Shown one piece after another: positions 15,532-64,000 of a stretch of 64,000 bases of DNA (the stretch's first letter is position 1; each line of letters opens with the position of its first letter). Position numbers and translations under genes: made by a program. The stretch lies in UHGV virus genome UHGV-0073881. One strand, written 5' to 3'. The notes beneath the pieces are model-generated. The model saw only the letters and a program-made list of their open reading frames with translations, was not told the DNA's origin and searched no databases. This DNA is from a virus.

Positions 15532-15833
15532 TGGCAGATTTAAATTGGGCTACAGGCTCAGTAGATGCTGATGGTAACCAGCTTAAAGTATTACCACCAC
15601 CAGAAGTTCAAGCAACTGGCCTTTTAAGGGGTGAACCTATGGGCCGTCAGTGGTTTAACTATATCTTAAACTACCTTCTGGTAAAAGTAAACGGGACGGT
15701 AGGTGAAGTCAAATCTTTTGCCACTGAACAACCTGATTTAGTTGAAAGTGGTTGGACGCTTATTAAAACAGAAACAGGTACTGCAACAACATCGACAACA
15801 AACCTATACACATATGAATATGTAGGGAGCTAA
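15531..15833 (+). CDS. hypothetical tail protein
   Basis: 100-aa ORF coupled to neighbours, directly upstream of the fibre genes. Confidence 0.4.
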
Positions 15834-15835
15834 TA

Positions 15836-17044
15836 ATGGCAGTTGGTGAAATTCAAATTAGTGCATTACCTCAAGCCTCTCTACCAATCGGGCTTAGTGA
15901 TATTTTTCACTTGAAGCAGGGTATTGAGGATAAAAGGTGTACACTAGAGCAATTACTTGCTCCACACGCATCTTTAAAGAATAACCCACACGAAGTTACA
16001 AAAAATCAGGTTGGTTTGAGTAGTGTTATTAACGCACTCCAATTAGTTGCTGCTAATAACTTGTCAGATGTTGTTAATGTTCAGGAAGCAAGAGCAAACT
16101 TAGGAATCCTTTCAAGTGACCAAGTTAATGCTCTTATTCAGACTCACATTGATGACAAGAATAACCCTCACAATACTACGAAGGGTCAAGTTGGATTAGG
16201 TAACCTCCAGAACTGGACATACTCCAATTCATACTCTGAAGATGCTGACAAATATGCTACAGCAAGGGCTGTAAACGCACTGTACAGGGCTATTCAGAAT
16301 AGTTACCCGATTGGTTCTATTCACCTGACTGTGAACCCTGCAAACCCCACTACGTACCTTCTTTGTGGGGGTACTTGGGAACTTGTCTCTAAAGGTAGAG
16401 CACTTGTAGGTTATGATACAGATTCCAGACCAGTTGATTCAACATTTGGTAGTCAGAATGTGACATTGAACAGTAACCACTTACCTGCTCACAGCCACTC
16501 AATTTACCTAACTGGTGGTACTCACAAGCATGGTAATAGTGTTTCTGTATCAAGCTTTGACTACGGAACAAGAACTACAAGTGGTTTTGACTATGGCACA
16601 AAGGCTACTAGTGGTTTTGACTATGGAAGCAAATCAACGACTCCATTTGATTATGGAAACAAATCTACGGATTATAGTGGCGACCATACCCATACGATTC
16701 CAGATTTTCCTGCTTATGAATGGAAAAATGCCACCGACAATGGTCGTTACAGAATGGGGATTAACACTAGAGATGGGGTAACAGGCTCATCCGGGAATCA
16801 CGCGCATACAGTCTATATTGGTGCTCATAGCCATTCTGTGTATATCGGTGCTCACAACCACACACTTGATATCGGTGCTCACAACCATACTTTGGCAATT
16901 GGTGCTCACACACATACAGTAACTGTAGACATTGAAGATGCTGACCATACACACTCTGGTACAACTGGTAACACTGGTAGTGGACAAGCTTTTAGTGTGG
17001 AGCAACCTTCCTATGTAGTTTACATCTGGAAGAGAGTAGCTTAA
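15836..17044 (+). CDS. tail fibre protein with His-x-His repeat tip
   Basis: 402 aa; N-terminal repeated KNNPH..TK.QVGL motif; four decapeptide repeats of the form xFDYGxxxTx; C-terminal IGAH-x-H-T repeats (GAHSHSVYIGAHNHTLDIGAHNHTLAIGAHTHT). Confidence 0.65.
   Translation: MAVGEIQISALPQASLPIGLSDIFHLKQGIEDKRCTLEQLLAPHASLKNNPHEVTKNQVGLSSVINALQLVAANNLSDVVNVQEARANLGILSSDQVNALIQTHIDDKNNPHNTTKGQVGLGNLQNWTYSNSYSEDADKYATARAVNALYRAIQNSYPIGSIHLTVNPANPTTYLLCGGTWELVSKGRALVGYDTDSRPVDSTFGSQNVTLNSNHLPAHSHSIYLTGGTHKHGNSVSVSSFDYGTRTTSGFDYGTKATSGFDYGSKSTTPFDYGNKSTDYSGDHTHTIPDFPAYEWKNATDNGRYRMGINTRDGVTGSSGNHAHTVYIGAHSHSVYIGAHNHTLDIGAHNHTLAIGAHTHTVTVDIEDADHTHSGTTGNTGSGQAFSVEQPSYVVYIWKRVA
16550..16925 (+). repeat. 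in-frame tandem repeats in the fibre gene (30-nt FDYG units and 27-nt GAH-x-H units)
   Basis: near-identical nucleotide units repeated about 4 times each, visible directly in the sequence. Confidence 0.7.
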
Positions 17045-17090
17045 TTATTTTTAAGGGGGCTGTAAAGCCCTCTATTAAGAGGATTGATAA

Positions 17091-19439
17091 ATGGCTGAAT
17101 ACAAACTAAGTGAACTAAACAGTATTGATACAGTTCGCTCAGACGACCTATTACATTTGAGAGTTATTAAAAGACCTGAAATGTTAGGTGACGAAGACCG
17201 TAAAATTACTTACGCAAATTTTCTAGCCTCATTTAGACTTGAAAGATTCCTGCAATTATCTGGTGGAACTATGACAGGTAATTTGGGAATTGTGAAGTTA
17301 ACTTACGGTGGAAAAGATTTATTTGACCCTACAAATTCTTCTGAAATTTCTATTGGGGATACTGCAAAGACTTTTAAAGTTAATGCAAATGGTCTTGCTT
17401 TAAAAGTTGCCGATGCAACAAGAACTGCATTTGTTTATCACACTCTGAATAAACCAAGCCCAGCAGATTTGGGTATGAGAACAAATGCTGAAAATGATGC
17501 AAGATATGCTATTAAGAATGCAGATAACACCTTTGCAGCTAGGCAGATTGTTAATATCAACGGTGCTGGTATTACCCTGAAAAGTATCTTCCCAGATGCT
17601 GGAGCATATTTTGAAGCAAGAGACTCTAACAATGCTTTGAGATTTACTGTAGGTAACTTGGATGCAAGTTCAGATGTTACTTTAGTAAATAGCAAGGGTG
17701 CTAAGTTGACTCTTGGGACAAACGCTGTTAGTGTTGATAAGGATTTTGCAATTACTGGTCAAGTATTACCAAGTGATTTGTCTAACTTCGATGCAAGATA
17801 CTACACTCAGAATGCTGCTGACCAGAGATTTGCAAGACTGACTGCAAATAACACCTTCTCAGGTACTAACAATTTCACAAACTATCAGACAATCACTTCT
17901 GATGGGGCTTTGCTGAGATTGAAGCCAGCTACAGCAAATGGTGCAGTGTTTGTTCAAGCTTATGCAGGTTCTGGCTCAGAGTCTTGGTATCTTGGTCAAC
18001 CTGACGGGACTAAGCAGGATGTTAACTTGTTTAACCAGATGACAGGTGCAACTATGAGACTCTCTACAGAGTTCTTCTTCAGTAAAGCACTAAACGTTAC
18101 TGGACAGGTTAAGCCAAGTGACTACAACAACTTTGACTCAAGATACCTGCCAGCTTCTTTAGGTAGCACACTTGCTAGGACTAACTCTGCAAATACTTTT
18201 AATGGTATTCAGACTATCCTATCTGATGAAACTCCGCTTCTACTGAAGAATAATACACTTAATGCACCATTGTATATTTCAGGGATTAATGCAAACAACA
18301 TTAGAAGATGGTATCTTGGTAATGGAGACCGTTACAATCCAGAATCCCTATTTTTGTCTAATGACACAACAGGTGCAGCGATTGTATTAAGTAACACCAT
18401 TAATATGACTAAGACCATTAATGTTACTGGTCAGGTTCAACCAAGTGATTTGTCTAACTTTGATGCAAGATACTTCTTAAAAGGTTATTTCATTGGTCAA
18501 TCAGTTATGACAAGAACGGTCAATGCTCTTGACAAACCAAACACTTTTGACATTAACTACGCAGGGTTTGTGAGAGCAAATGGTATGATTGATGGGTTAG
18601 GCTCTTTAGCTATTCATGTTCCACACTCTGCTGGTTGTGAGCATGGTAGAGGCATTAGTTTTGACTATGGAAGTGTGGGTTCGGGTCTTGGTCTAGGCAC
18701 ATATGCCTATGATGCAAGTGGTAATTACCGTGGTTCAGCAGAAATCTACACAACTGCCAGAAAACCAACAACTGCGGAGTTAGGTGTGTACAGTAAAGCA
18801 GAAACTGACCAGAGAATTGCAACAGCTATCACAAACTCAACAGACCTAAACAAGATTTACCCTGTAGGTATGGTTACACTGTTTGCTTCTAATGTCAACC
18901 CTAACGTAGCCTTTGCAGGAACTACTTGGGCTTACTTGGCAAATGGACAGTTTAGAACTATCCGTATTGCATCGTCAACTGGTGAAGATGTTGGTTCGGT
19001 TGGTGGTTCAGATACTAAGAGTATTGCCGTTGGGCATCTTCCAAACCACACGCACAGTTTCTCAGGTACTGTATCGACATTTGACCACGGAACAATTGGT
19101 ACTTCACTAAACGGTTGGCATGGTCACTCTGTGAGTGGCTCTACTGCTGCTGCTGGTGCTCACAACCACACATCATTTGCACTTGGTTGGCAGAAGGGAT
19201 GGGGTTTCCCAGCCGGTAACCAGAACATGGGTGAGTATGCAAAACCAACGTCAACTAATGGTGAACACGCTCACTCATTCTCCGGCACTGCTGCTGGCGA
19301 TGGTAACCACACTCACACTGTTCCAGTTGGTGCTCACAACCATACTTTCAGTGGTAACACTGGTGGTACGGGTTCTGGTTCAGCATTTGACGTTACTAAC
19401 GCATTCATTAAATTGATGGCATGGGTTAGAACTGCGTAA
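17091..19439 (+). CDS. long tail fibre protein
   Basis: 782 aa; three ~110-aa internal repeats marked by NVTGQV.PSD.(S/N)NFD(A/S)RY; C-terminus carries H-x-H motifs (GAHNHT, GEHAHSF, GNHTHTV) and ends like the 402-aa fibre. Confidence 0.7.
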   Translation: MAEYKLSELNSIDTVRSDDLLHLRVIKRPEMLGDEDRKITYANFLASFRLERFLQLSGGTMTGNLGIVKLTYGGKDLFDPTNSSEISIGDTAKTFKVNANGLALKVADATRTAFVYHTLNKPSPADLGMRTNAENDARYAIKNADNTFAARQIVNINGAGITLKSIFPDAGAYFEARDSNNALRFTVGNLDASSDVTLVNSKGAKLTLGTNAVSVDKDFAITGQVLPSDLSNFDARYYTQNAADQRFARLTANNTFSGTNNFTNYQTITSDGALLRLKPATANGAVFVQAYAGSGSESWYLGQPDGTKQDVNLFNQMTGATMRLSTEFFFSKALNVTGQVKPSDYNNFDSRYLPASLGSTLARTNSANTFNGIQTILSDETPLLLKNNTLNAPLYISGINANNIRRWYLGNGDRYNPESLFLSNDTTGAAIVLSNTINMTKTINVTGQVQPSDLSNFDARYFLKGYFIGQSVMTRTVNALDKPNTFDINYAGFVRANGMIDGLGSLAIHVPHSAGCEHGRGISFDYGSVGSGLGLGTYAYDASGNYRGSAEIYTTARKPTTAELGVYSKAETDQRIATAITNSTDLNKIYPVGMVTLFASNVNPNVAFAGTTWAYLANGQFRTIRIASSTGEDVGSVGGSDTKSIAVGHLPNHTHSFSGTVSTFDHGTIGTSLNGWHGHSVSGSTAAAGAHNHTSFALGWQKGWGFPAGNQNMGEYAKPTSTNGEHAHSFSGTAAGDGNHTHTVPVGAHNHTFSGNTGGTGSGSAFDVTNAFIKLMAWVRTA

Positions 19440-19447
19440 TCAACTTA

Positions 19448-19476
19448 TTGACTAATTGTTAAGATGGTGTTAATAT
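19448..19476 (+). promoter_or_regulatory. sigma70-like promoter candidate (TTGACT-N17-TAATAT)
   Basis: hexamers with 17-nt spacing in the gap between the fibre gene and the ORF at 19526; a 9-bp inverted repeat AAGATGGTG/CACCATCTT overlaps it. Confidence 0.4.
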
Positions 19477-19525
19477 TTCTTAGTAGGTATTCTCACCATC
19501 TTGGCTTAAGAAGTAAGGTGATTAA

Positions 19526-19720
19526 ATGCCAACTATCCTAGCAATCCTCTTAAAAAACCTTGGGGCATTCTTCTGGAAGCTTGCACTTTCTCTTCTAAGT
19601 GAATACATGATTGAAAAAGCATTCTTCAGACTTGCAAGATACCTTGCGAGTAAGACTGATACGCCTATCGACGATGAATTTGTAGATAACTTGGAAAAAG
19701 CTTTTAAAGGTGAGAAATAA
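19526..19720 (+). CDS. small membrane protein (holin-like candidate)
   Basis: 64 aa with one hydrophobic helix and a charged C-terminus; located after the fibre genes. Confidence 0.35.
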   Translation: MPTILAILLKNLGAFFWKLALSLLSEYMIEKAFFRLARYLASKTDTPIDDEFVDNLEKAFKGEK

Positions 19721-20094
19721 TGAAGTGGTTAGAAGATGCTTTCAAGAATAATATCGGTGCAATTGTTGTAGGTATTTTCAGTGTAATTGGGATGTACACT
19801 ACAATGCAGGTCTCTGACGGAAAGCAAGAAGTTTCTATCAACACAAAGTTACAACAGTTGGATAGTTACTCAAAAGGTAACTATTCATCTATTCGTGATT
19901 TGCAGTCTGATATGAGACTTCTTCAGTTAGGTATGGAGAACCAGAAGGTACAGCTAGAGAACGTTAAGGGGGAAAACGCTAAGTTGACCAAAACCCTTGA
20001 TAAATTCTCAGATAGTGTGAACAACTTAGCACAGTCTGTATCAGCTTTACAAGCAATTACCGAACAAAATACACAAAGCACTAAGAAAAAATAA
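19720..20094 (+). CDS. membrane-anchored coiled-coil protein
   Basis: 124 aa; N-terminal TM segment IGAIVVGIFSVIGMY followed by a heptad-like Q/L-rich region; ATGA overlap with upstream ORF. Confidence 0.35.
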   Translation: MKWLEDAFKNNIGAIVVGIFSVIGMYTTMQVSDGKQEVSINTKLQQLDSYSKGNYSSIRDLQSDMRLLQLGMENQKVQLENVKGENAKLTKTLDKFSDSVNNLAQSVSALQAITEQNTQSTKKK

Positions 20095-20100
20095 TGTTAA

Positions 20101-20125
20101 GGCTCCCGTAAAAAGGAGCCTTTTT
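20101..20125. terminator. bidirectional stem-loop terminator between convergent transcription units
   Basis: GGCTCC-loop-GGAGCC followed by TTTTT; lies between the + strand ORF ending at 20094 and the - strand ORF ending at 20131. Confidence 0.6.
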
Positions 20126-20130
20126 CTTAT

Positions 20131-21030
20131 CTACTTACCAACTGACAAGGGAGCTTCAATCTTCCCTGCATGACGGTAATCTTTCAAGCCACCTATGAAG
20201 TCACTTGCAGTTTTATGTTTAATGTCTTCAAGGCATTTCAAGTCTTGAACAATCTCAAATTTAGGTGCTGGAAACTCTTCATTACCTAGCAACTGGAAAA
20301 CCTGAGACATATGGTTTTGATAAATTTGAGTATCCCCAAAAGTGCCTACCAAGTATCTTGGAGTGTACCCTGTCATCTTACACAGAACATGCAAAATAAA
20401 ACCATATGATGCAATATTAAATGGTAAACCTAAGAAGGTGTCACATGACCTTTGATACCATTTCAAATCCATCTCTCCAGTATTCGAAACATAAATCTGG
20501 AAAAGAACATGACAAGGTGCTAATGCCATAGAACCACTTGCAATATCTGCTGCATTCCAAGCATTAACCAGCATGTAACGGTCTGTAGGAGACTTTTTAA
20601 CCTTATCAATAAGAATGTCTAACTGGTCAACTACAACGCCACCATGACCTTCTGAAGCCCTCCACTGGACACCATAGATTCGTCCACCTGCATCTTCCAG
20701 CCAATCCTTCTCAGTCGCATAAGAAGTCTTCAACCAACGCTTGAAGTCATCTGTCCAGATAGTCCAACGTTCTCCGTCATTCTCTCCCCAAGTTCTGTAT
20801 CGAAGAGTTCCAAGGGTGTTTTCACCATTTAAGAACCAAAGTGCTTCCCCAATTACCTGACGCATGAAGGTTTGCTTTGAAGTGATTAATGGGAATCCAG
20901 AACGCATATCAAAGCGAAACTCTGGTGGAGCAAAGGTGGTAACAACTTTACCAGTTCGTGTATCACGCTGCTCACCGACTGTTAAAACATGGTTCAAAAT
21001 ATTCTTGTAACTTACATCTGCTTGTGACAT
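20131..21030 (-). CDS. thyA: thymidylate synthase
   Basis: 299 aa with ThyA hallmarks including the active-site PCH context (ALAPCHVLFQ) and conserved C-terminal region. Confidence 0.9.
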   Translation of the reverse strand: MSQADVSYKNILNHVLTVGEQRDTRTGKVVTTFAPPEFRFDMRSGFPLITSKQTFMRQVIGEALWFLNGENTLGTLRYRTWGENDGERWTIWTDDFKRWLKTSYATEKDWLEDAGGRIYGVQWRASEGHGGVVVDQLDILIDKVKKSPTDRYMLVNAWNAADIASGSMALAPCHVLFQIYVSNTGEMDLKWYQRSCDTFLGLPFNIASYGFILHVLCKMTGYTPRYLVGTFGDTQIYQNHMSQVFQLLGNEEFPAPKFEIVQDLKCLEDIKHKTASDFIGGLKDYRHAGKIEAPLSVGK

Positions 21031-21031
21031 A

Positions 21032-21577
21032 TCAGAAACGTCCTCTTACTTGTGGAACATAAATGTTGAATACAACGCTGTCATCCTTCGATGGTTTTGA
21101 CTGTATTCTAGCAAAAGTTGACTCATCATACAAGTACTCAAAGAAACCCTTGTAAGGAAGCTTCACAGTTGCTTCTTCAGTCACTTCACGAATATATGTT
21201 TGACAAACTGCATCTGCATATGGTAAAGCTTGGATTAGAATGCTTGCCCCGCCAATTATACAAACATCTTGCTCGATACTATTATCAAGATGTTTTAAGA
21301 ATGCCCCAAAAGCGTCTGAATGAACCTTAGCAAACATTACATCTTCTCTACCAAAATCTATACCTTCATACGGTAATGAGTTTGTCAGAACAATATTATC
21401 ACGGTCTGGTAAAGGTTTGCTTCCAAGACTCTTGAAAGTGTCATTACCCATAACTACCAATTGACCTGTGGTAATCTTTTTGAACTCTTGCATGTCTTGC
21501 TTATTACGAGGCCAAGGCATACCAGAAGGACAACCAAACTCCCCGTTAAGACCATTTGCAAAAACTAATTTAATCAT
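21032..21577 (-). CDS. folA: dihydrofolate reductase
   Basis: 181 aa; DHFR-like N-terminus (MPWPRNKQD, VVMGNDTFKSLG, PLPDRDNIVLT); adjacent to the thymidylate synthase gene. Confidence 0.85.
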   Translation of the reverse strand: MIKLVFANGLNGEFGCPSGMPWPRNKQDMQEFKKITTGQLVVMGNDTFKSLGSKPLPDRDNIVLTNSLPYEGIDFGREDVMFAKVHSDAFGAFLKHLDNSIEQDVCIIGGASILIQALPYADAVCQTYIREVTEEATVKLPYKGFFEYLYDESTFARIQSKPSKDDSVVFNIYVPQVRGRF

Positions 21578-21846
21578 TGTGTGAACCCCTTTACAATAAA
21601 CCAGTTAGCAATATTTTTAACAAATTTAACTGGGTGAAATACTAAATGTGGTTGTGGTTCATAACCACCATAAGCCCAGAAAGAGATAATGTTATTACAA
21701 TCCGTGCAACGTGTATACTCTTCGGCTACATTACCTGCGACAATCTCTGTAATCTCACCTTGGAAATTTGTACCTCCACAATGTGGGCATTTTAAAGGTT
21801 CGCCGTCTTGACTGTAACAGTGTTCAAACTTCTCAAACAGTTTCAT
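21574..21846 (-). CDS. hypothetical zinc-ribbon protein
   Basis: 90 aa with CPHCGG ... CTDCN cysteine pairs. Confidence 0.45.
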   Translation of the reverse strand: MKLFEKFEHCYSQDGEPLKCPHCGGTNFQGEITEIVAGNVAEEYTRCTDCNNIISFWAYGGYEPQPHLVFHPVKFVKNIANWFIVKGFTQ

Positions 21847-22364
21847 TTTTTGTTTACCTTAAAAGTTTGCTGGATATCAACTACGAAGTCTAAATCATCA
21901 CACTCACTTGATAGGAAATCTTCAAAGTGTTTTGGTATAAAACTTAGGAAATCCATAGAACCCAAATCACCTACTAAGCGAATGTAATAATCGTTCTCGC
22001 AAGTTGCATTAACTAAATGCCGTCCTATGTATGGCTTCACAATATCTCTTATATCATCTACGAAGATATTCAAAAGAGCTTTGAAGGATTTAGGGTACTG
22101 AGTTCCTCCATACAAGTCAATGCTTGCTTCAGTCTTTACAGAGATTGATTTAGCATCTCTGAACTCAGTTGAGAAAAGATGAGCAGGGAGAATACAAAGT
22201 GAATCTCCAGTATCTTCATCAACCAACTCAATAGTTCCTGCATCATAGTTTGTTTCAATCAGTATTTCACCCTCTTGTATCTTTCTTGCTTCAAGGTGAG
22301 TTGTGATAATACCTCTCAGTATTGATGCTTCAGGGAGAAATAAGTTGATTCCTATTTTCTGCAT
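21843..22364 (-). CDS. hypothetical protein
   Basis: 173-aa ORF in the co-oriented early cluster. Confidence 0.45.
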   Translation of the reverse strand: MQKIGINLFLPEASILRGIITTHLEARKIQEGEILIETNYDAGTIELVDEDTGDSLCILPAHLFSTEFRDAKSISVKTEASIDLYGGTQYPKSFKALLNIFVDDIRDIVKPYIGRHLVNATCENDYYIRLVGDLGSMDFLSFIPKHFEDFLSSECDDLDFVVDIQQTFKVNKK

Positions 22365-22365
22365 A

Positions 22366-22869
22366 TCAAACCTCTACAAATGTTTGCTTCATGTTATCGT
22401 ATGAATAGAATTTTATACACTTTTGAGTATTCCAGTCAACCTTTTCTTTGTAAGAAAGACCTTTTGAGATTCGCTTACCAAGAGTCTGATAGACGATATC
22501 TCGAAGCTTTCTGTACTCAGGTGCATCATCTAAAGCTTTTGCATCTGTAGTTGCCTTGTAACCGTCTATAGAACGTTGATTCCAATCCTGCTGAGTTGGT
22601 GACATTGGCTTGTAAAGCTGTGGCAGATGATTGTAAAGCATGTTACCTTCTTCTAAAGCAAGCTTCAGTTGGTGAAGGTACTCATTCAAACGACCATCCT
22701 CTTCAAGCCACTCATACAGAGACTGTAAAGCCCCTAGATTGTTGTTGTAATGGGCAGCACGTTTTACAGAACCCTTGTCAGTACGATAAGGTGACTTTGG
22801 AAGACTCAGTATCTGACCTTTCAAAACGTTGAATCCAAAGACCAAATCTATTTTCATGGGAAGAGACAT
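22366..22869 (-). CDS. hypothetical protein
   Basis: 167-aa ORF in the co-oriented early cluster. Confidence 0.45.
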   Translation of the reverse strand: MSLPMKIDLVFGFNVLKGQILSLPKSPYRTDKGSVKRAAHYNNNLGALQSLYEWLEEDGRLNEYLHQLKLALEEGNMLYNHLPQLYKPMSPTQQDWNQRSIDGYKATTDAKALDDAPEYRKLRDIVYQTLGKRISKGLSYKEKVDWNTQKCIKFYSYDNMKQTFVEV

Positions 22870-23213
22870 TTGATATCCTCATTTTTAAAAGTGAATGTTG
22901 TGTAGATAGTACCTTCAACATCTAACCAGATAGCAGTGGCATCCACACCATCAAGGTTATTGAAAAGTTCTTTGATGAACGAGTTACGAATATCCTTTGC
23001 ACAGGTTGTCTCAAGTTTAATGTTTGAGATTGCTGAACCAATTGCCATATAGCCTTTGACACGATTCTTCTCAGAATGCTTGATATCACCTTTCTGTAGT
23101 TTAGCAATCATCTCTACAAGAATCTCATGCCCCCATACCTTCTCAGCCTCTGTAGGCTTACTATAAAAACCAATTGCAAAGTTACCTTTAAAGATTGCAT
23201 TTTCACGTTTCAT
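22854..23213 (-). CDS. hypothetical protein
   Basis: 119-aa ORF in the co-oriented early cluster. Confidence 0.45.
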   Translation of the reverse strand: MKRENAIFKGNFAIGFYSKPTEAEKVWGHEILVEMIAKLQKGDIKHSEKNRVKGYMAIGSAISNIKLETTCAKDIRNSFIKELFNNLDGVDATAIWLDVEGTIYTTFTFKNEDIKCLFP

Positions 23214-23214
23214 A

Positions 23215-23514
23215 CTAATCTACCTTACTTAAGTTGAAGTTTAAGCCAAGTTTATCACAAACACTAATCATGTAGTCAAGAGATACTTTCCCACTACCAT
23301 TCAGGATGTTTGAGACTCTGGCTTGAGATATTTCACAAATCTTTGCTACCTGAATCTGTGAAAGGTTGTTTCTTTTCATGTGTATGTTTAACTTTTTAGA
23401 GATGTAAAACTTCATCTCATCAACATCCATTCCTGCTATATAAGCTTCCATTTCGGCCTCTCTATCTGCCTCCCAATCATCTTGAGGTGCATAAGGGTCA
23501 AAGATACTATTCAT
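23215..23514 (-). CDS. helix-turn-helix DNA-binding protein (XRE-like)
   Basis: 99 aa; C-terminal half matches an HTH pattern (LSQIQVAKICEISQARVSNILNG). Confidence 0.55.
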   Translation of the reverse strand: MNSIFDPYAPQDDWEADREAEMEAYIAGMDVDEMKFYISKKLNIHMKRNNLSQIQVAKICEISQARVSNILNGSGKVSLDYMISVCDKLGLNFNLSKVD

Positions 23515-23710
23515 CTTTCTTTCTCCGTTTACGAGAAGTGTCGATTAACGAATCAAGGTTAGTAGCTCTAACTTGTTCACGAGTACCATTGATGTAGTTA
23601 TCAAGGGACTCTACAACAGTGTTGAAGTCTTTAGCCCAAACTCTGTAAATAACTACGCCGTCATCGTCAATAACTTCACCATAGTCTACTCTACAGATAT
23701 TCTTCTTCAT
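23507..23710 (-). CDS. hypothetical protein
   Basis: 67-aa ORF coupled to neighbours. Confidence 0.4.
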   Translation of the reverse strand: MKKNICRVDYGEVIDDDGVVIYRVWAKDFNTVVESLDNYINGTREQVRATNLDSLIDTSRKRRKKDE

Positions 23711-24087
23711 TGTGGAAGACCCATGCAGTGACGGTTAATGATAAAGTGTTCAACACCGTCTAAAGCACCCTGAGAAACGTGCTCTTTCACAACTTCAATT
23801 TCAGTAATCTGCTCAGGGTTAAGAACGTCAATGTTTTCTGTAACCATCATATCAGAAACATCAAGGTAGTACTGCCCCATTGTGTGGTAATTGAAATCAA
23901 TTATCTTGTCAGTTAATTCAGAAACAGTGTCTTGAGAAATCGGCTTTGTCAATTCTCCAGCTTTAGAAACAACCTTTTGAGCAACCTGACAAGCTTCTAC
24001 TCTGACGTTGTTGTAATCAATCTTTGGCATATCTGCATAAGCATTGAAGCTTAGTGCGGCAAAGATACATAGTACAATCTTTTTCAT
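23707..24087 (-). CDS. secreted/periplasmic hypothetical protein
   Basis: 126 aa with N-terminal signal peptide MKKIVLCIFAALSFNAYA (A-x-A cleavage-like site). Confidence 0.5.
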   Translation of the reverse strand: MKKIVLCIFAALSFNAYADMPKIDYNNVRVEACQVAQKVVSKAGELTKPISQDTVSELTDKIIDFNYHTMGQYYLDVSDMMVTENIDVLNPEQITEIEVVKEHVSQGALDGVEHFIINRHCMGLPQ

Positions 24088-27208: not shown

Positions 27209-27454
27209 TTAATATCCTTCGTCAATAACGGTGATGTGTTGAGTGCTTGACTTACCATACCTGTAAGAAGTTGTTGTCTGTGAATTTGGGCAACGGACTA
27301 CTATTAAGTCATATTTAAATGTTGACCAATTAAGTTTGTATATTGAACAATCTCTCATCTCTGGAGGTAACTCATAGCTACTGTCTTGTTTGTCATAACT
27401 TGGGTTACAGCCAGTTAGAAAAAGCACTCCAAGTGCAATGATTGTTTTCCACAT
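27209..27454 (-). CDS. small lipoprotein
   Basis: 81 aa; signal peptide plus lipobox-like LTGC (MWKTIIALGVLFLTGC); three further Cys. Confidence 0.55.
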   Translation of the reverse strand: MWKTIIALGVLFLTGCNPSYDKQDSSYELPPEMRDCSIYKLNWSTFKYDLIVVRCPNSQTTTSYRYGKSSTQHITVIDEGY

Positions 27455-56004: not shown

Positions 56005-57123
56005 ATGACTACTAAGACTAAAGCACAAATTGATGCAGAAATCTATGCACTGGTTCAGGAAGGTAAACTGACCAAGACTGCAATTGCAATGAAGTACAAC
56101 ACTTCAACTCGTTCTGTAGGTCGTGCTGTTGAGCGTCATGAAGCAGTTCTGGCTGGTAAGAAGGGAGATTCAAAACCTGTTAAAACTCTGAAGGGTCTTG
56201 CAAAGACTGCTAAGAAAGCTAAAAAAGCTTCTGTAGCAAAACCTACCAAAGTTGCTAAAGCAGTTGAAAAGGCTGTTAAAACAGAACCAGTAAACGCACT
56301 GCATGAGGCAATGCAGAGTAATACTCAAATTGAGTACATGATTACTGGAGACTCTGTTATTATGACGTTTGGTGCAGAATCTGAGATTGTTGAATCAACT
56401 CATCCAAACTTCACAGAAATCAAATTGGCAGTTGTAGCAGGTGAGTACAAGAAAGCTTTTGAATTGATGAATATTCGTAAAGCTATCGAAAACTTTACTC
56501 AGGGTGCTATCACAATCAAAGGTGACAATCTGTACTACGGTGCTGTCCAAATGCGTTCTACTCTGGTTGACCGTATTCTGGATATGATGAAGAATGGCGA
56601 TGCAGGATTTACCCGTCTGGTAGCGTTCTTCGAAAAACTGATGGAAAACCCATCAAAAGACTCTGTAGAACAACTGTGGGGCTTCGTATCACATCTGGAC
56701 GTAGAGATTGACGAAGAAGGTTATATCATCGGTTGGAAGAAAGTCACTAGCCGTAATGGTAAGTTGTTTGACTCTCGCACCTGCAAAGTACCTAATGATT
56801 TGGGTAACATTGTAGAGATGCCTCGTTGGATGGTTGATAACAACCGTAACGTAACTTGTTCACAAGGACTGCATGTTGGTGCTTGGGATTATGTAACAAG
56901 CTTCTCAGGTGATACGATTCTGAAAGTACGTGTTCACCCACGAGATGTTGTTTCAGTACCAACTGACTACCAAGATATGAAAATGCGAGCTTCACGCTAT
57001 GAAGTAGCAGCAATTGTAAATGGTCGTCGTGAAGTTGTGAAAGAGTGGGATGGTAAAGAAGCACTCCATGTTGTTGTCGGTACTGCTGGTGAATTGATTT
57101 CTAAGCGCAACCGTGAAATCTAA
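56005..57123 (+). CDS. rIIB: rIIB-like protein
   Basis: 372 aa directly downstream of rIIA; segments GLVDRILDMM and VHPRDVVSVPTDY match rIIB as recalled from T4. Confidence 0.6.
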   Translation: MTTKTKAQIDAEIYALVQEGKLTKTAIAMKYNTSTRSVGRAVERHEAVLAGKKGDSKPVKTLKGLAKTAKKAKKASVAKPTKVAKAVEKAVKTEPVNALHEAMQSNTQIEYMITGDSVIMTFGAESEIVESTHPNFTEIKLAVVAGEYKKAFELMNIRKAIENFTQGAITIKGDNLYYGAVQMRSTLVDRILDMMKNGDAGFTRLVAFFEKLMENPSKDSVEQLWGFVSHLDVEIDEEGYIIGWKKVTSRNGKLFDSRTCKVPNDLGNIVEMPRWMVDNNRNVTCSQGLHVGAWDYVTSFSGDTILKVRVHPRDVVSVPTDYQDMKMRASRYEVAAIVNGRREVVKEWDGKEALHVVVGTAGELISKRNREI

Positions 57124-57140
57124 TCAGTAAATTCTTAAAA

Positions 57141-57164
57141 GGGCTGCTTCGGCAGCCTTTTTTA
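57141..57164 (+). terminator. rho-independent terminator
   Basis: GGGCTGC-TTCG-GCAGCC followed by TTTTTT. Confidence 0.65.
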
Positions 57165-57224
57165 TTTGTGATTTGTGCAGAATAGTGTATAATTACCCCT
57201 ATGTTTAATAAAATAGGAGAACCA

Positions 57225-57773
57225 ATGAAGAAATTCATTTTAGGTTTGTGCTTACTTTTTACAGCACAAGTAGCTGTGGCAACTGACTGCCCTGAGTTAA
57301 CTATCAGCCAGAAAGTAAACATGCTTAAAGCTTACAACTATGGCGAAAACAAAATGGGAAAAGGTTGGGGTGTTACACTTGCAGCTATAGCCTTACAAGA
57401 GTCAGAGTTAGGTCTTAACCTAGAAAATAGAAAGACACATGATTATGGCATCTTCCAGAATCACTTGAAGACTGTTGTAAAGCGTAACAAAGTTAACCCT
57501 AATGTAGCTAGGAAGAAGCTTATCAGAGACTTTCAATATGCTGCACAGGAGACTCACAAAGAGCTTGAATTCTGGACTAAGGTACATGGTACACCAAAAG
57601 GAAAGAAGTCTCTTAAGAAGGTATTAGCCTCTTACAATGCAGGGTATAACTACAGTATTCCAAAAGCTAGACAGTACTCTAAAGATGTGTATAATAACAT
57701 GCAAGTGCTTGCTCAATGTGAGTTTGCAACAAACATTCAAAAGGTAAAACATGAACGTATTAAGTCAATCTGA
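57225..57773 (+). CDS. exported lytic transglycosylase-like protein
   Basis: start at ATG 57225 (AGGAGA 5 nt upstream); signal peptide MKKFILGLCLLFTAQVAVA; SLT-like catalytic context IALQESELG ... DYGIFQ. Confidence 0.4.
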   Translation: MKKFILGLCLLFTAQVAVATDCPELTISQKVNMLKAYNYGENKMGKGWGVTLAAIALQESELGLNLENRKTHDYGIFQNHLKTVVKRNKVNPNVARKKLIRDFQYAAQETHKELEFWTKVHGTPKGKKSLKKVLASYNAGYNYSIPKARQYSKDVYNNMQVLAQCEFATNIQKVKHERIKSI

Positions 57774-58446
57774 TAGCGTCCTGTGTCATGCTTATGATAT
57801 TCAACCACTTGACTTAGGTCTTAGTGCAGCAAGCTGGACAGACTGGATGAAGGAAGATTTTGCAGATACTGCAAGGATTGTTGAGTGTGAATTTGAAGAG
57901 TTCCATTCACCAAAAGCTTTTGTCTGTTGTATAGATGTGACCACTGGAAAGGTCGTATCTGTAAAGCGTGATAGTTTGATACTTGTCGCAAAAGAATTTG
58001 ACATTAAACGTAAGATGGTACTCACTGATATTGACGGTGTGCTAACACGATTTGATAAGTCACTGAATGCAACTTACTTGCAAGATGGTACTAAATCACA
58101 GTACACCAATCTGGTTGATTCTGTTCATGCAGAAGCTACTTATGTGTTTAACATCCTGAGAGCTATCTCAAAGAATGCTGATATTGGTGTATTAACTGCT
58201 CGTGGTGATTCACAAAGAATCCCTACTGAGTTGTTTTTAAACGAACATCTTGACAGCATGTACTCACTATTTATGCGAGGATTTGGATGCAATAAGATGA
58301 GTGCAGAAAGTTTGAAAGTTCGTATGATTCAGTCTTGCATTCTCCCATACTATGACGTAGAATGCTTTATAGAAGATACAGTAAGGAATGTGCAGAAGGT
58401 TAACAGAATCCTTCCACATATTAAAACAATGATTGTTAAACACTAA
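57751..58446 (+). CDS. hypothetical protein with HAD-like motif
   Basis: 231 aa; internal LTDIDGVLT resembles HAD phosphatase motif I (DxDGxL). Confidence 0.35.
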   Translation: MNVLSQSDSVLCHAYDIQPLDLGLSAASWTDWMKEDFADTARIVECEFEEFHSPKAFVCCIDVTTGKVVSVKRDSLILVAKEFDIKRKMVLTDIDGVLTRFDKSLNATYLQDGTKSQYTNLVDSVHAEATYVFNILRAISKNADIGVLTARGDSQRIPTELFLNEHLDSMYSLFMRGFGCNKMSAESLKVRMIQSCILPYYDVECFIEDTVRNVQKVNRILPHIKTMIVKH

Positions 58447-58458
58447 GAGAGAGAAATC

Positions 58459-58923
58459 ATGCAAAACATTATCACTGTAGCAATTGATGCAACTGGTAAC
58501 AAATCACAGGTTGTACGTAACATCATCAAGGAAAACTTTGATGGTAAAATATTTCGTGCAGTAAACGTCAAAGCTGACGGAGAAATCCGTGAATATCGTG
58601 CAATGCTTAACGTTACTAAGCATGTCAAAGGTGTTGGTTCAACCACGGCACATAAAGAAAACCTGATGACTATCTATGATATGGGTATGGCTTCAGAGTT
58701 GGGTGCTGAAGGTATTGTAAAGTCTGGTGCTCCGTACCGTTCTTTCAATCTGGAAACTGCTCTTATGCTTTCCTTTACAAGTGGTGCTAAGACTACCACG
58801 TATCTCTTTACCGATGCTGCAACGGTATCGGCTATCAAGGATAGTACTATCAAGGCTGGCGTTTCTGCTGCTGCAAAAGCGTCAACGATGGCTGCAAATG
58901 TCCTTGCTAAAGTCCTCGGTTAA
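58459..58923 (+). CDS. hypothetical protein
   Basis: 154-aa ORF followed by a terminator. Confidence 0.45.
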   Translation: MQNIITVAIDATGNKSQVVRNIIKENFDGKIFRAVNVKADGEIREYRAMLNVTKHVKGVGSTTAHKENLMTIYDMGMASELGAEGIVKSGAPYRSFNLETALMLSFTSGAKTTTYLFTDAATVSAIKDSTIKAGVSAAAKASTMAANVLAKVLG

Positions 58924-58935
58924 GGTTACTATATA

Positions 58936-58956
58936 GGCTCCTTCGGGAGCCTTTTT
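58936..58956 (+). terminator. rho-independent terminator
   Basis: GGCTCC-TTCG-GGAGCC followed by TTTTT. Confidence 0.65.
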
Positions 58957-58974
58957 AAATTTCAAGGAGTACTA

Positions 58975-59859
58975 ATGAAGCCAATGTTCAAATATCTTGG
59001 TGGTAAAACAAGAATACTAAGAGAGTATGAGCGTTTAAATGTTTTTCCAAGCCACTGTAAAAACTTCTATGATTTGTTTTCAGGTGGAGGTTCAGTCGCT
59101 ATTTGGGCTTATAACAGATACCCAGAAGCAAAAATATTTATTAATGAGATAAACAAACACATTATAGGTCTTTACACAACTTTCAGAAATGACTATGAAA
59201 ACTTCATGGAAGAATTTGAGTGCTTGTCAAAGAGGTACTTAGCATTACCTATGCAGGAAGAATATGCTGTGAAAGGTCAGCGACATAAACGTTTACGCTA
59301 TAAAATGTATTACAGTGTAAGGGAGGAACTCCTTTCACTTGGTGAAACAGGTATATATGACTATAGGTACTATGCAAGACAATTTTTCCTTCAAAAACTA
59401 AGTTTTGGTGGTGTATGGCAGACCACTAAAGAAATGAAAGGTCACTACGCAACACCTTGTGGGTATTTGCTGGAAGAAGAGATTTTCTTTACAAAAACTA
59501 AAGAGTCACTATCCGAGTTCTACAGTTTTATCACCGATAAAAGGGTGATACTAAGTAGTGAGCCTTATGATATGGTTGACATAAAACATGGAGAAGGTAC
59601 AGTTATTTACTGTGACCCCCCATATATCAACACCAACCAGAAATATGGTGCAAAGTTTGACATTGAAATGTCTGTAAAACTATGTGAAAATATGATTTCT
59701 TGGGGAGAGTTAGGTTCTAAAGTTTTGATGTCAAACTCTCAGTGGGATGGATGGACAAACTTAATCCCTGAAAATTTTAACTTGACAGAGGTTAGCCATT
59801 CATACACAATACATGCACAGAGAAGCAAGGGTGTTAGCGAAGTAATTATTCATAACTAA
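58975..59859 (+). CDS. dam: DNA N6-adenine methyltransferase (Dam family)
   Basis: 294 aa; SAM-binding FxGxG (FYDLFSGGGS) and catalytic DPPY (VIYCDPPYI). Confidence 0.8.
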   Translation: MKPMFKYLGGKTRILREYERLNVFPSHCKNFYDLFSGGGSVAIWAYNRYPEAKIFINEINKHIIGLYTTFRNDYENFMEEFECLSKRYLALPMQEEYAVKGQRHKRLRYKMYYSVREELLSLGETGIYDYRYYARQFFLQKLSFGGVWQTTKEMKGHYATPCGYLLEEEIFFTKTKESLSEFYSFITDKRVILSSEPYDMVDIKHGEGTVIYCDPPYINTNQKYGAKFDIEMSVKLCENMISWGELGSKVLMSNSQWDGWTNLIPENFNLTEVSHSYTIHAQRSKGVSEVIIHN

Positions 59860-59870
59860 GGTATCAAACC

Positions 59871-60683
59871 ATGACAAACAGTGTAAATGTAGCTCTAAAC
59901 GGTAAGATTGTTAAAATGCAGACTAAGATTATCAGCGTAGAAGACTTTATTAATGAGAAACGCTACAAGGAAAATCCACGTCAACGAAATACATTAAAAC
60001 GACTTAAGAGCAAACACCTTAATGGTGATGTATCACCAGACCAAACAGTTGTCCATATTGCTAAATTCGGTAGTTCACTGTTTATTATTGACGGCCACTC
60101 ACGCAGAGAGGCATGGAAAGTTGGGAACCTTACACGACCAGAAGGATTGATTGCAGTTATATACCATGTAAACTCTATACTAGATGTTACAGATTTGTAC
60201 ACTCACTTTGACTCTGAGTTAGCAAGAGAGAAACCTTCAGAAGTCTATTACGGAAACATGAAGATGATTTCCTTCAATCCAAAGTCAGAGTTGATGAAAG
60301 CATCTTGGGCTACTGCTATTAAGTATGTTGCTGCATACTATGGGGTGCAACAGGTTTCTAACACTGAAACAGTCAATCACCTTGATGACTTTAAAAATGA
60401 GATGGAGCAAATTGACTCTCTTGAAGTACAGCTCAAAGGTGTAGTAAACGCAAAACGTAAGTATTCCTCTGGTATTCGTGCAGCAATGCTAATTACATTA
60501 CGGCTATATGGTGATGCTGCATTCTCCTTCTGGGAGGACTATAATGACTACTGCGAAGGTATGTCTAACAAATATGTTACAGAGGCATACCAACTAGCAT
60601 TGCAAGCTGGTCGTGGAGCACAGGCTGACAAGCTATTGATGAATCAAGTAATTTCACTTGTCAACTACTTCAGCCAAGAGTAG
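59871..60683 (+). CDS. ParB-like nuclease-domain protein
   Basis: 270 aa; segment FIIDGHSRREAWKVG matches the ParB/Srx N-terminal box (hydrophobic-x-DG-x-x-RR-x-A); directly downstream of dam. Confidence 0.45.
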   Translation: MTNSVNVALNGKIVKMQTKIISVEDFINEKRYKENPRQRNTLKRLKSKHLNGDVSPDQTVVHIAKFGSSLFIIDGHSRREAWKVGNLTRPEGLIAVIYHVNSILDVTDLYTHFDSELAREKPSEVYYGNMKMISFNPKSELMKASWATAIKYVAAYYGVQQVSNTETVNHLDDFKNEMEQIDSLEVQLKGVVNAKRKYSSGIRAAMLITLRLYGDAAFSFWEDYNDYCEGMSNKYVTEAYQLALQAGRGAQADKLLMNQVISLVNYFSQE

Positions 60684-60689
60684 TACACA

Positions 60690-60710
60690 GGCTCCAGAAG
60701 GAGCCTTTTT
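60690..60710 (+). terminator. rho-independent terminator
   Basis: GGCTCC-AGAA-GGAGCC followed by TTTTT. Confidence 0.65.
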
Positions 60711-60852
60711 CGTTTATGTAAGGGGTACATTATGATTAAAGTTATCAAGATAATACCATCATTGGTAATGCTCATAGTAGGGGTAGGTATTATACTTATG
60801 CTTTGCCCTGCTTTTTGGCCTTTTATCTTATAATAGTCTAGGAGATTGACAA

Positions 60853-61200
60853 ATGACATTCAAAGAATTTTGTCAAGCAGCTTTTGTAATCATGTTTTTG
60901 TTAGGTGTAGGTGCTTGGGGTGGCTATACTTACAAGACTAGCCAAGTTAACGAGAAAGAGTTGACTAATCAGAAGCTTGTTAGTGTTGCTAAGGATGCTT
61001 ACCAAGAAGGTTTAGCAAATCTTAGCGCTAATTACAAAAATGATTTGAAAGATGTGCTTGCTAAAAACAAACACACAAAAGAGGTATTGACCTATGAAAA
61101 AACTAAGACAGAGTTTTATAATATTTGTGCTACTGAGCCTTATGTCAGGGTGTTCAACCTACAAAGTGAACAATACCTTCAAAAACTCCCAAGTAAGTGA
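60853..61200 (+). CDS. i-spanin-like protein (inner-membrane anchored)
   Basis: 115 aa; N-terminal TM helix AAFVIMFLLGVGAWGG, then charged coiled-coil-like periplasmic domain; its 3' end contains the start of an out-of-frame lipoprotein ORF. Confidence 0.45.
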   Translation: MTFKEFCQAAFVIMFLLGVGAWGGYTYKTSQVNEKELTNQKLVSVAKDAYQEGLANLSANYKNDLKDVLAKNKHTKEVLTYEKTKTEFYNICATEPYVRVFNLQSEQYLQKLPSK

Positions 61201-61363
61201 GAGTGACAAGTACACTCAGGAAGAGACTAGGTACACTGTCAAGGGTACTAAAGGTGAAGACCTTGCTAGTGCTATGGAGTTTTACCGTGATGGATTCTAT
61301 GAATGTACTATCAAGGCAAACAATTTGATTGATATGATTTTGTTAGGGAATAAGCAGCAATGA
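61094..61363 (+). CDS. o-spanin-like lipoprotein
   Basis: 89 aa; signal peptide with lipobox-like LMSGC; start embedded in the upstream gene in another frame with GAGG 9 nt upstream (Rz/Rz1-type overlap). Confidence 0.45.
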   Translation: MKKLRQSFIIFVLLSLMSGCSTYKVNNTFKNSQVSESDKYTQEETRYTVKGTKGEDLASAMEFYRDGFYECTIKANNLIDMILLGNKQQ

Positions 61364-61629
61364 CAGAAAAGAGTGAAACGTTTTATGTAGAAGGTTACTT
61401 ACTTCTTCCAAGACCAAGTAACACTTATATGAGAATTGATTTTTTACCAACTATCATGGATGATGTAATGTGTCACCTGTTTATTCAGGGTATCACAGCA
61501 CAGCTTAAACATGTTGGAAGAGAGTGTAAGATTCGTGTTGACAACCATCCAGAAATCAACGAGAATCACTACATCTTCTTCGGTGAAGATTCTAAAGAAA
61601 TCTACGCAACGTTAAAGACTAGGAAATAA
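61360..61629 (+). CDS. hypothetical protein
   Basis: 89-aa ORF. Confidence 0.4.
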   Translation: MTEKSETFYVEGYLLLPRPSNTYMRIDFLPTIMDDVMCHLFIQGITAQLKHVGRECKIRVDNHPEINENHYIFFGEDSKEIYATLKTRK

Positions 61630-61784
61630 CATGGATAAGCAAAAGCTGCTTGAACTAATTAAAGAGTATGGTGATACTCGCTACAATGTAGCTGGAGAAA
61701 GCTGTCAAGGTTCAATCGATGGTTTAACTTTCTGGGAAGAATCTTCAGAAGCAATCTTACAACAAATTAGAGAGGTTGTAACAA

Positions 61785-62189
61785 ATGGGTGATTGTGCAG
61801 ATGATGCAGACCGTTGGGCTGAGTTGCAAGGGTTAAGACAGGAATTTAGAGAACTACTCAGGGGTTCTTCACAAGCCTATAAAGAGTACAATCAAGAAGA
61901 CTTCCCTAGCAAGCCTTTGTACCTGATTCACCAAAATAATCTCATGAATGTTGGGTACAGCATGGAACAAAGGATGAAGATTTGTGTAATAAGATACTTC
62001 ATTAATGAATCTGCAAAAGTTGGTGATGAAATCATTTGTCCATGCTGCAATTTGAAGTTTAAGAAGAAAACATATCAGCAAAAGTTTTGTGGAGTTAAAA
62101 AGAAAGGTCATTCAAACTGTAAAGATTTCTTTTTCAACTTTACAAACCCAAAACGTTATGAAAGGGTGAAGTTTTTTGTGAGAGGATGA
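61785..62189 (+). CDS. hypothetical zinc-ribbon protein
   Basis: 134 aa; C-terminal CPCCN ... FCG...HSNC. Confidence 0.45.
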   Translation: MGDCADDADRWAELQGLRQEFRELLRGSSQAYKEYNQEDFPSKPLYLIHQNNLMNVGYSMEQRMKICVIRYFINESAKVGDEIICPCCNLKFKKKTYQQKFCGVKKKGHSNCKDFFFNFTNPKRYERVKFFVRG

Positions 62190-63754: not shown

Positions 63755-63799
63755 AGCCTTTCTTACTCAAGCATTCAGCAAGGTAAGGAGGGCTTTTTC
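63755..63799 (+). terminator. stem-loop terminator candidate
   Basis: AGCCTTTCTTAC ... GTAAGGAGGGCT (12-bp stem with two G-U pairs, 16-nt loop) followed by TTTTT. Confidence 0.45.
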
Positions 63800-64000
63800 A
63801 TTTCAAAAACGTGCAGGTGTAGTGCTATAGAGAAATCTGTACAGCAATTTCTGAACTCCAAAGAGAAAAATCATTTTAGAATTGTGCAGGTCAACTCCAA
63901 AGAGCTTTTTCATTTTCAATCTGTGCAGATGCAGTTGGACTCCAAAGGGAAAATTCATTTTCAATTTGTGCAGGTAGGTAGCTATAGGAAGCCAGCCCCA
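63793..64000. repeat. array of imperfect direct repeats (unit ~40-45 bp)
   Basis: four copies of TCATTTT(C/A)(A/G)A-N3-4-GTGCAG(G/A)T at 63811, 63884, 63923 and 63968, interleaved with three copies of ACTCCAAAG(A/G)G; non-coding; runs to the window edge. Confidence 0.55.

Follow-up and report, generated by a model that had tools for sequence, protein, structure and literature searches.

It is very probable that the locus described here is the two-component spanin operon of an Ounavirinae myophage, next to which a 33-aa ORF immediately upstream (ORF33) probably forms an accessory mini-gene of its own. What was observed directly is the anatomy of the genes, their signal features, their conservation and the family to which they belong. 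The window, i.e. the whole 64-kb stretch of DNA that was analysed, is assigned by its sequence to an Ounavirinae (Felix O1/Moogle-like) myophage genome of ∼87 kb, because megablast searches with positions 57000–62000 and 15000–24000 returned about 250–258 records of Felixounavirus/Mooglevirus-type myophages. The nearest relative in these searches was Escherichia phage pEC-M719-6WT.1 (pEC-M719 below), with ∼90% nucleotide identity.

Overlapped genes for a membrane protein and a lipoprotein

The features of the locus, together with two candidate lysis genes elsewhere in the window, are listed in the table. A reading of the DNA made from the sequence alone had described a gene for a transmembrane protein whose 3′ end contains, out of frame, the start of a lipoprotein gene, and both ORFs and their 107-nt overlap were found where that reading had placed them. 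Since the two starts are offset by 241 nt (61094 − 60853), the o-spanin frame is +1 relative to that of the i-spanin, and the o-spanin start falls at 0.69 of the i-spanin length. Within the overlap, the +1 frame encodes the signal peptide, the lipobox and the first mature residues of the o-spanin. The same +1 overlap is common to tootiki, Moogle, wV8, ESh19, pEC-M719, Hafnia phage Zyzzx, Erwinia phage Fifi318 and Pectobacterium phage Arno162; moreover, both overlapping frames stay open in relatives as low as 21–31% identity, the +1 overlap being kept in all nine loci examined, and relatives keep the sequence ‘aaagaggta’ upstream of the o-spanin start.

Table. Features of the spanin locus and candidate lysis genes in the window
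Feature	Position	Strand	Basis and details
Candidate holin, 124 aa	19720..20094	+	Single transmembrane helix, helical tail; synteny, prediction only
Exported SLT-like (lytic transglycosylase-like) protein	57225..57773	+	PF01464 at 19.6 bits, below the 21.3-bit cutoff; phrog_600
Intrinsic-terminator-like hairpin	60689..60710	+	AGGCTCC-AGAA-GGAGCCT, then a T run; scan
Shine–Dalgarno-like AAGGGG of ORF33	60720..60725	+	6 nt before ATG; kept in the other three copies
ORF33, 33 aa	60732..60833	+	ORF list, hydropathy
Shine–Dalgarno AGGAG of i-spanin gene	60840..60844	+	8 nt before ATG
i-spanin gene, 115 aa	60853..61200	+	phrog_1152 match, hydropathy, conservation
Shine–Dalgarno-like AGAGG of o-spanin gene	61080..61084	+	Inside the i-spanin gene, 9 nt before ATG
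o-spanin gene, 89-aa lipoprotein precursor	61094..61363	+	phrog_4180 match, lipobox, conservation
Dual-coding overlap, 107 nt	61094..61200	+	Frame 0 encodes i-spanin residues 81–115

The terminator hairpin just 5′ of the spanin genes is kept in all relatives; its stem was aligned in five phages, and in wV8 it is annotated as a rho-independent terminator. No promoter for the spanin genes was identified by a sigma-70 scan, in which promoter-like sites were no commoner than in shuffled sequence, and an Rfam search around the locus found no RNA family, the sole match being sub-threshold and lying on the terminator.

The i-spanin has a hydrophobic stretch at residues 6–24 (maximal 19-residue Kyte–Doolittle mean of 1.72), and this N-terminal transmembrane helix is conserved across all homologues. 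Thus a type II orientation, with the rest of the protein in the periplasm, is predicted. The putatively periplasmic residue C92 is invariant, and it belongs to a conserved C-terminal motif, F88-N90-C92-Y97-F101-N102. By tblastn, the i-spanin was found in 277 phage records, nearly all of them Ounavirinae, and it matched phrog_1152, labelled ‘Rz-like spanin’, at 1.4e-35.

The signal sequence of the o-spanin (MKKLRQSFIIFVLLSL) has a positively charged n-region (MKKLRQ), a hydrophobic core (SFIIFVLLSL) and a lipobox (MSGC) containing C20, followed by Ser at +2, i.e. a residue other than Asp, and Thr at +3. When ATG-started ORFs of at least 40 aa in all six frames of the window were scanned (n = 662), only two satisfied the PROSITE-type lipoprotein rule, the o-spanin being one. 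None of the residues C20, S21 and T22 varies among 12 sequences, as low as 31% identity, and lipidation at Cys20 is predicted from these features. The mature protein would have 70 aa; it has no proline and carries an invariant C71 in its putatively periplasmic part. Residue C71, like C92 of the i-spanin, is probably suited to a homodimer disulfide, both bonds being predicted; neither cysteine varies even in Hafnia, Erwinia and Pectobacterium phages with only 21–31% identity. The o-spanin matched phrog_4180, labelled ‘unknown function’, at 9e-48, and tblastn found it in 307 phage records, again nearly all Ounavirinae; distant spanin homologues were found by tblastn in Hafnia, Erwinia and Pectobacterium phages. 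In existing annotations the gene is left out in the two closest relatives, and tootiki and many metagenome calls have a version truncated at the lipobox. A second lipoprotein ORF, at 27209–27454, was considered as an alternative o-spanin and set aside, since no partner membrane protein accompanies it and its PHROG is another one.

AlphaFold2 predicted an all-helical i-spanin (helices 3–20, 39–57, 65–79, 82–92 and 95–111; mean pLDDT only 56) and a partly helical o-spanin with a C-terminal helix at 54–87. With mean pLDDT values of 56–57, these low-confidence models give no structural support to the coiled coil that the sequence-only reading had named for the i-spanin, or to a spanin–spanin interface.

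Place among known spanin families

Kongari et al. (2018) listed, in their overlapped class, an i-spanin family ‘JH2 (15)’ and an o-spanin family ‘JH2 (11)’, both of which contain Felix01, Moogle, Mushroom, UAB_phi87 and WV8 (PMC6139136). From the homology of both proteins to the listed members, the pair in the window is, by sequence, a member of this curated and already known JH2/Felix O1 overlapped spanin family; phage JH2 itself was among the tblastn matches. This listing and the ‘Rz-like spanin’ label of phrog_1152 bear out the overlapped spanin pair that had been proposed from the sequence alone. Moreover, ‘i-spanin’ and ‘o-spanin’ are annotated at the syntenic place in Moogle, tootiki, Sf14, phiSUSP1, ESCO45 and many others.

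Compared with other Ounavirinae spanins, those of the window show no substantial difference. The Moogle i-spanin (AIW03859.1) and o-spanin (AIW03858.1) are 97% and 96% identical to the window proteins, respectively, and gp006/gp007 of wV8 share 78% (i-spanin) and ∼81% (o-spanin) identity, wV8 and tootiki together ranging from 78 to 82%. Spanins of the Moogle/Felix O1/wV8 type have the same lengths (115 and 89 aa), the same +1 overlap, the same lipobox position and the same conserved cysteines. Their neighbours are likewise the same, with polynucleotide kinase, a 154-aa protein and the terminator upstream and an 89-aa phrog_4391 gene downstream, and the window adds a methylase + phrog_2615 module and ORF33 on the upstream side.

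Like lambda Rz/Rz1, the pair combines a putative type II inner-membrane protein with a predicted outer-membrane lipoprotein, encoded by DNA shared in the +1 frame; periplasmic cysteines occur in both systems, and the total periplasmic length is similar (∼160 residues in the window versus ∼170 in lambda). However, the genes of the window are overlapped rather than embedded and lie outside any lysis cassette, and the o-spanin is larger than that of lambda (70 versus 40 mature residues), proline-free and predicted to have a C-terminal helix. Neither spanin protein matched any Pfam family at E ≤ 0.01, and so neither matched Rz or Rz1. Because of this lack of a Pfam Rz/Rz1 match and the absence of proline from the mature o-spanin, the term ‘Rz/Rz1-type’, which the sequence-only reading had applied to the pair, holds on present sequence comparisons for its architecture and presumed mechanism but not for homology.

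In T4 (gene order pseT.3-pseT.2-pseT.1-pseT), the spanin genes likewise lie outside the holin–endolysin cassette, among early/middle genes and one to three genes from the polynucleotide kinase gene. PseT.3 and PseT.2 are of similar size (117 and 99 aa), and the T4 o-spanin is also without a proline-rich region. In contrast to the overlapped genes of the window, which are downstream of the kinase gene, those of T4 are separated and upstream of it. Homology between the two pairs was considered and rejected, as BLASTP aligned nothing at E ≤ 100 and the pairs fall in different PHROGs (739 and 812 in T4 versus 1152 and 4180 in the window).

Weak i-spanin homology was found in phiEco32-like podophages, where the ‘Rz-like spanin’ of vB-EcoP-XT18 has 33% identity over 92% of the length. 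PhiEco32, ECBP2, KBNP1711 and NJ01 are indeed placed in the same i-spanin family as JH2, whereas the o-spanins of phiEco32-like phages are absent from the JH2 o-spanin list, which has 11 members versus 15 (PMC6139136). With the o-spanin, tblastn gave no match to phiEco32-like phages. The spanins named as experimentally tested are those of lambda, T7, P2, T4 and T1 only, which include no member of the JH2 family (PMC6139136).

ORF33 and the insertion hot spot

The sequence-only reading had also reported a 33-codon hydrophobic ORF preceded by AAGGGG; the ORF and its upstream motif are present, and its coordinates, given as 60731–60832, required correction by one base. ORF33 begins with MIKVIK and continues as a 27-residue hydrophobic stretch to the C-terminus, with no charged tail (maximal 19-residue Kyte–Doolittle mean of 2.81), and it ends 19 nt upstream of the i-spanin gene on the same strand. 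Identical protein copies were found only in ESh19, pEC-M719-6WT.1 and the metagenome contig OIWQ01002648.1, DAJ98459.1 being also listed for the sequence. Among ∼280 related phage records two carry ORF33, and the junction is without it in >99% of relatives. A phmmer search of 1.84 billion representative proteins returned only ORF33 itself, and no match was found in Pfam, PHROGs or NCBIfam. Degenerate DNA patterns for the ORF33 ends gave only chance matches in IMG/VR, and such patterns in metagenome and genome collections found one true copy (OIWQ01002648.1), the other hits being chance motif matches.

In a five-phage alignment, tootiki and Moogle pass straight from the terminator hairpin to the ribosome-binding site of the i-spanin gene. 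In the window, ESh19 and pEC-M719, an insert of ∼120 nt lies between these two elements, consisting of AAGGGG, ORF33 and a stop codon; pEC-M719 has an extra 50-aa acidic ORF inserted after ORF33. Upstream, the window and tootiki carry the methylase + phrog_2615 module, which is flanked by two copies of the terminator hairpin (58935–58952 and 60689–60706 in the window). Because ORF33, the 50-aa ORF and the methylase + phrog_2615 module were all inserted there, in the window or in relatives, the terminator/spanin-RBS junction is, judged from sequence comparison, an insertion hot spot. The emptiness of this hot spot in >99% of relatives suggests that ORF33 is likely a small accessory membrane peptide, and the evidence favours its being tied to the hot spot as an incidental cassette passenger rather than to lysis.

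That ORF33 is a real gene for an accessory membrane peptide appears reasonably likely. The evidence for its expression consists of the ribosome-binding site, strand and position, and three synonymous differences. The competing explanation, in which a short AT-rich insert between genes contains this open frame by chance, is possible but rather doubtful. ORF33 has only 33 codons and is an orphan among the representative proteins searched; T-rich DNA readily codes for hydrophobic residues; and in GenBank only the liberal PHANOTATE pipeline called it, in records where it also calls evidently spurious ORFs of 31–36 aa inside the unannotated o-spanin gene. A chance origin is, however, less easily reconciled with an insert that contains little besides a ribosome-binding site, a single ORF and its stop codon, on the coding strand, and with the finding that ORF33 ranks first in hydrophobicity among the 145 small ATG ORFs (28–45 aa) of the window, no other with a hydropathy above 2.5 having a Shine–Dalgarno motif. 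Furthermore, the four DNA copies differ at three sites, all of them synonymous third positions, in what is a very small sample. This last signal is weak because the block with ORF33 stems from recent recombination, being 99% identical to ESh19 where the upstream genes reach 73–84%, and the high nucleotide identity of ORF33 between phages may reflect the same recombination.

Scattered lysis genes and the proposed route of outer-membrane disruption

No endolysin gene adjoins the spanin pair, as had been noted from the sequence, and tblastn with the GH24 lysin of the group found no copy in the window; this is in part an effect of where the window ends. The endolysin of Ounavirinae, tootiki_61 in tootiki and annotated as ‘lysin’ in pEC-M719, has 154 aa and is of the T4-lysozyme type. 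In pEC-M719 it is encoded at 75.1–75.6 kb, ∼15 kb downstream of the i-spanin (60.07 kb), and in tootiki it lies ∼14 kb from the spanins. Given this distance in pEC-M719, and since the window stops 2.6 kb after the o-spanin, the lysin is expected beyond the window end. Hence the possibility that an endolysin is truly missing from the genome was rejected, as synteny with relatives puts the gene outside the window. In eight tail and baseplate proteins, no peptidoglycan-hydrolase Pfam domain was detected.

Two further elements of the earlier reading, the SLT-like protein and a pair of small membrane proteins (19526–20094), are present as described. The 124-aa member of that pair listed in the table occupies, by synteny, the place behind the tail fibre genes where Mordin and tootiki have an annotated ‘holin’, and it falls in phrog_4038, whose function is unlabelled. 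The SLT-like protein, 3 kb upstream of the spanins, has the motifs QES, GIFQ and SYNAG and is called ‘putative lysin’ in some records, and it is not the canonical endolysin of the group. The lysis functions are thus dispersed, which was already on record for Felix O1-like phages in 2010 and 2015 (PMC3185647, PMC4319497), with a further Ounavirinae example (PMC7925395); Felix O1 was described as having no holin–lysin cassette, ‘as with coliphage T4’ (Whichard 2010, PMC3185647).

The established model for the spanins of lambda and T4, of which PMC6139136 gives a summary, was the basis for inferring topology, lipidation, assembly of the complex and membrane fusion. In the mechanism proposed, the 115-aa product would be anchored in the inner membrane via its N-terminal helix, with its helical domain in the periplasm. 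The 89-aa product would be exported, cleaved by signal peptidase II and lipidated at its lipobox cysteine, and its sorting to the outer membrane is predicted because the +2 residue is Ser, not Asp. The C-terminal regions of the two proteins would then bind each other and so bridge the periplasm; this bridge is probably stabilised by homodimers, each joined by a disulfide at the one periplasmic cysteine that is conserved in the respective protein. Upon opening of the inner membrane by the candidate holin (19720–20094) and removal of peptidoglycan by the T4-lysozyme-type endolysin, presumably encoded outside the window, the freed spanin complexes would destroy the outer membrane, most likely by fusing it to the inner membrane, a step demonstrated for lambda Rz/Rz1. 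ORF33, dropped into the intergenic hot spot, would most likely be an N-in single-pass peptide of the inner membrane and not part of the core lysis machinery.

Alternatively, the membrane protein and the lipoprotein could serve another early envelope function, such as superinfection exclusion or receptor masking (cf. T5 Llp or Cor-type proteins), which we consider improbable. The points against a spanin role, which would suit this explanation, are the location of the pair behind a terminator and among early-type genes (rIIA/rIIB, polynucleotide kinase, methylase), its distance from the holin candidate (40 kb) and the lysin (∼15 kb), the unlabelled o-spanin PHROG (phrog_4180), the missing proline-rich region, and the fact that no experiment on the JH2 spanin family was found in the literature. 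Nevertheless, spanins are defined by the signature of an overlapped +1 pair in which an inner-membrane protein anchored at its N-terminus is combined with a lipoprotein of outer-membrane type, and this pairing is kept subfamily-wide, whereas the sole other lipoprotein ORF in the window lacks a membrane-protein partner. The curated database of spanin specialists includes the JH2/Felix O1 family, and there is a precedent for such a location in T4, whose spanins, outside the lysis cassette and beside the polynucleotide kinase gene, complement lambda (PMC6139136). Thus the spanin reading is preferred for the pair.

It is similarly improbable that ORF33 is itself a lysis component, i.e. a tiny holin, an antiholin or a spanin regulator co-expressed with the spanins. 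Lysis regulators are often small membrane proteins, and ORF33 encodes one very hydrophobic helix just before the i-spanin gene, on the same strand and with its own ribosome-binding site. However, only two of 277 records carrying the same spanins have ORF33, and since >99% of spanin-bearing relatives do without it, it is not needed for lysis in Ounavirinae. Holins have at least one transmembrane domain and a charged hydrophilic C-terminus, are usually at least 60 aa long and are usually encoded beside the endolysin. With 33 aa, no charged C-terminal tail, no family match in PHROGs, Pfam or NCBIfam and no endolysin nearby, ORF33 is unlike known holins, and a holin assignment was rejected. Moreover, unrelated cassettes (the methylase + phrog_2615 module and, in pEC-M719, the acidic ORF) enter the same junction. 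The least probable proposal is that ORF33 represents a new membrane-active mini-cassette peptide that moves between Moogle-like phages and acts with the spanins or the holin, for example in lysis timing, in priming the inner membrane for fusion or in blocking superinfection; if true, accessory factors of lysis would gain a new class.

For Felix O1-like phages, both the spanin pair and the scattered lysis layout had already been published and annotated in GenBank, and the only uncharacterised element of the locus is the orphan ORF33. Automated annotation of therapeutic Felix O1-like phages under-reports the lysis system, because gene callers miss the o-spanin and its PHROG is of ‘unknown function’. 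With an o-spanin that is proline-free and predicted to be partly helical, the JH2 spanin family offers a cheap comparison to lambda Rz/Rz1. The terminator/spanin-RBS junction, in turn, forms a small hot spot at which cassettes insert, with ORF33 among its rare passengers.

Lipoprotein, transglycosylase-like and repeat features away from the spanin genes

The coordinates of the features discussed here are collected in the table. The product of the second lipoprotein-type ORF matches a protein family without assigned function, and its gene lies directly upstream of the DNA ligase gene, with no membrane-protein partner alongside; the product is possibly an envelope or an exclusion lipoprotein of the phage. 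The exported SLT-like protein, whose gene adjoins rIIB, carries the lytic-transglycosylase-like motifs QES, GIFQ and SYNAG, and its Pfam SLT match reached 19.6 bits, slightly below the 21.3-bit cutoff. Its homologue is named 'putative lysin' in some relatives, and the group also has a separate GH24 lysin of T4-lysozyme type. Downstream of the Macro-domain gene and reaching the window end, the direct repeats share the core CTCCAAAGRG....TTCATTTT.AA..TGTGCAG, and could be repeated promoters or iterons.

Features in the window and in the comparison loci of related phages
Feature	Position	Strand	Description
Second lipoprotein-type ORF	27209-27454	-	81 aa, MWKTIIALGVLFLTGC..., phrog_902
Exported SLT-like protein	57225-57773	+	signal peptide MKKFILGLCLLFTAQVAVA, looks cleavable
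Terminator hairpin, two copies	58935-58952 and 60689-60706		AGGCTCC-NNNN-GGAGCCT, then T run
Dam-like methyltransferase gene	58975-59859		flanked by the paired hairpins
phrog_2615 gene	59871-60683		flanked by the paired hairpins
Imperfect direct repeats	63789-63980		3-4 copies, each ~35-45 nt, 39-73 nt apart
o-spanin gene, pEC-M719-6WT.1	L006 5314-5583
o-spanin gene, ESh19	L007 4413-4682
o-spanin gene, tootiki	L001 6971-7234
Additional acidic ORF, pEC-M719-6WT.1	L006 4907-5059		50 aa, MKYKVYIVIQGVEIAIDIYSDTDSDDAYELEEEL..., between ORF33 and i-spanin

Spanin genes in relatives and in database records

In the records of ESh19 and pEC-M719-6WT.1 the o-spanin gene is wholly unannotated and short out-of-frame ORFs are called in its place, the tootiki call is shortened so that the annotated start is the lipobox 'MSGC', and many metagenome gene calls are cut to 73 or 68 aa, by which the signal peptide is lost. 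By sequence comparison, the AGGAGATT ribosome-binding site in pEC-M719-6WT.1 now serves the additional acidic ORF, and the i-spanin gene has a new ribosome-binding site, GAGGGTGAG.

Felix O1-like sequence at the spanin locus was also seen in records named Campylobacter phage A132 and A126 (~84% nucleotide identity), Listeria phage LPML1 (o-spanin database match at ~47% protein identity) and a Staphylococcus phage. These host labels look doubtful for phages with a Gram-negative spanin pair.

In both T4 (L012 7133-7782) and the window (57751-61363) the polynucleotide kinase gene lies at most one to three genes from the spanin genes. However, the window gene order is reversed relative to that of T4 (pseT.3-pseT.2-pseT.1-pseT), and the two sets of spanins show no homology.

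Mosaic structure and the terminator-flanked module

Compared with pEC-M719, ESh19 and the further locus L023, window 57751-61363 has a sharply mosaic structure. For the polynucleotide kinase and 154-aa genes, identity is 97% and 94% to pEC-M719 but 73-84% to ESh19. For ORF33 (the 33-aa hydrophobic peptide ORF) and i-spanin, it is 99% and 95% to ESh19 but 97% and 87% to pEC-M719; genes downstream show ~73-86% identity to each of the three. This pattern of identities places a recombination joint at or near the terminator.

The Dam-like methyltransferase and phrog_2615 genes are enclosed between two like terminator hairpins in the window, and in the locus comparison Moogle, ESh19 and pEC-M719 have a single hairpin and lack the module. 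This difference suggests that the methyltransferase/phrog_2615 cassette was acquired via recombination at the terminator.
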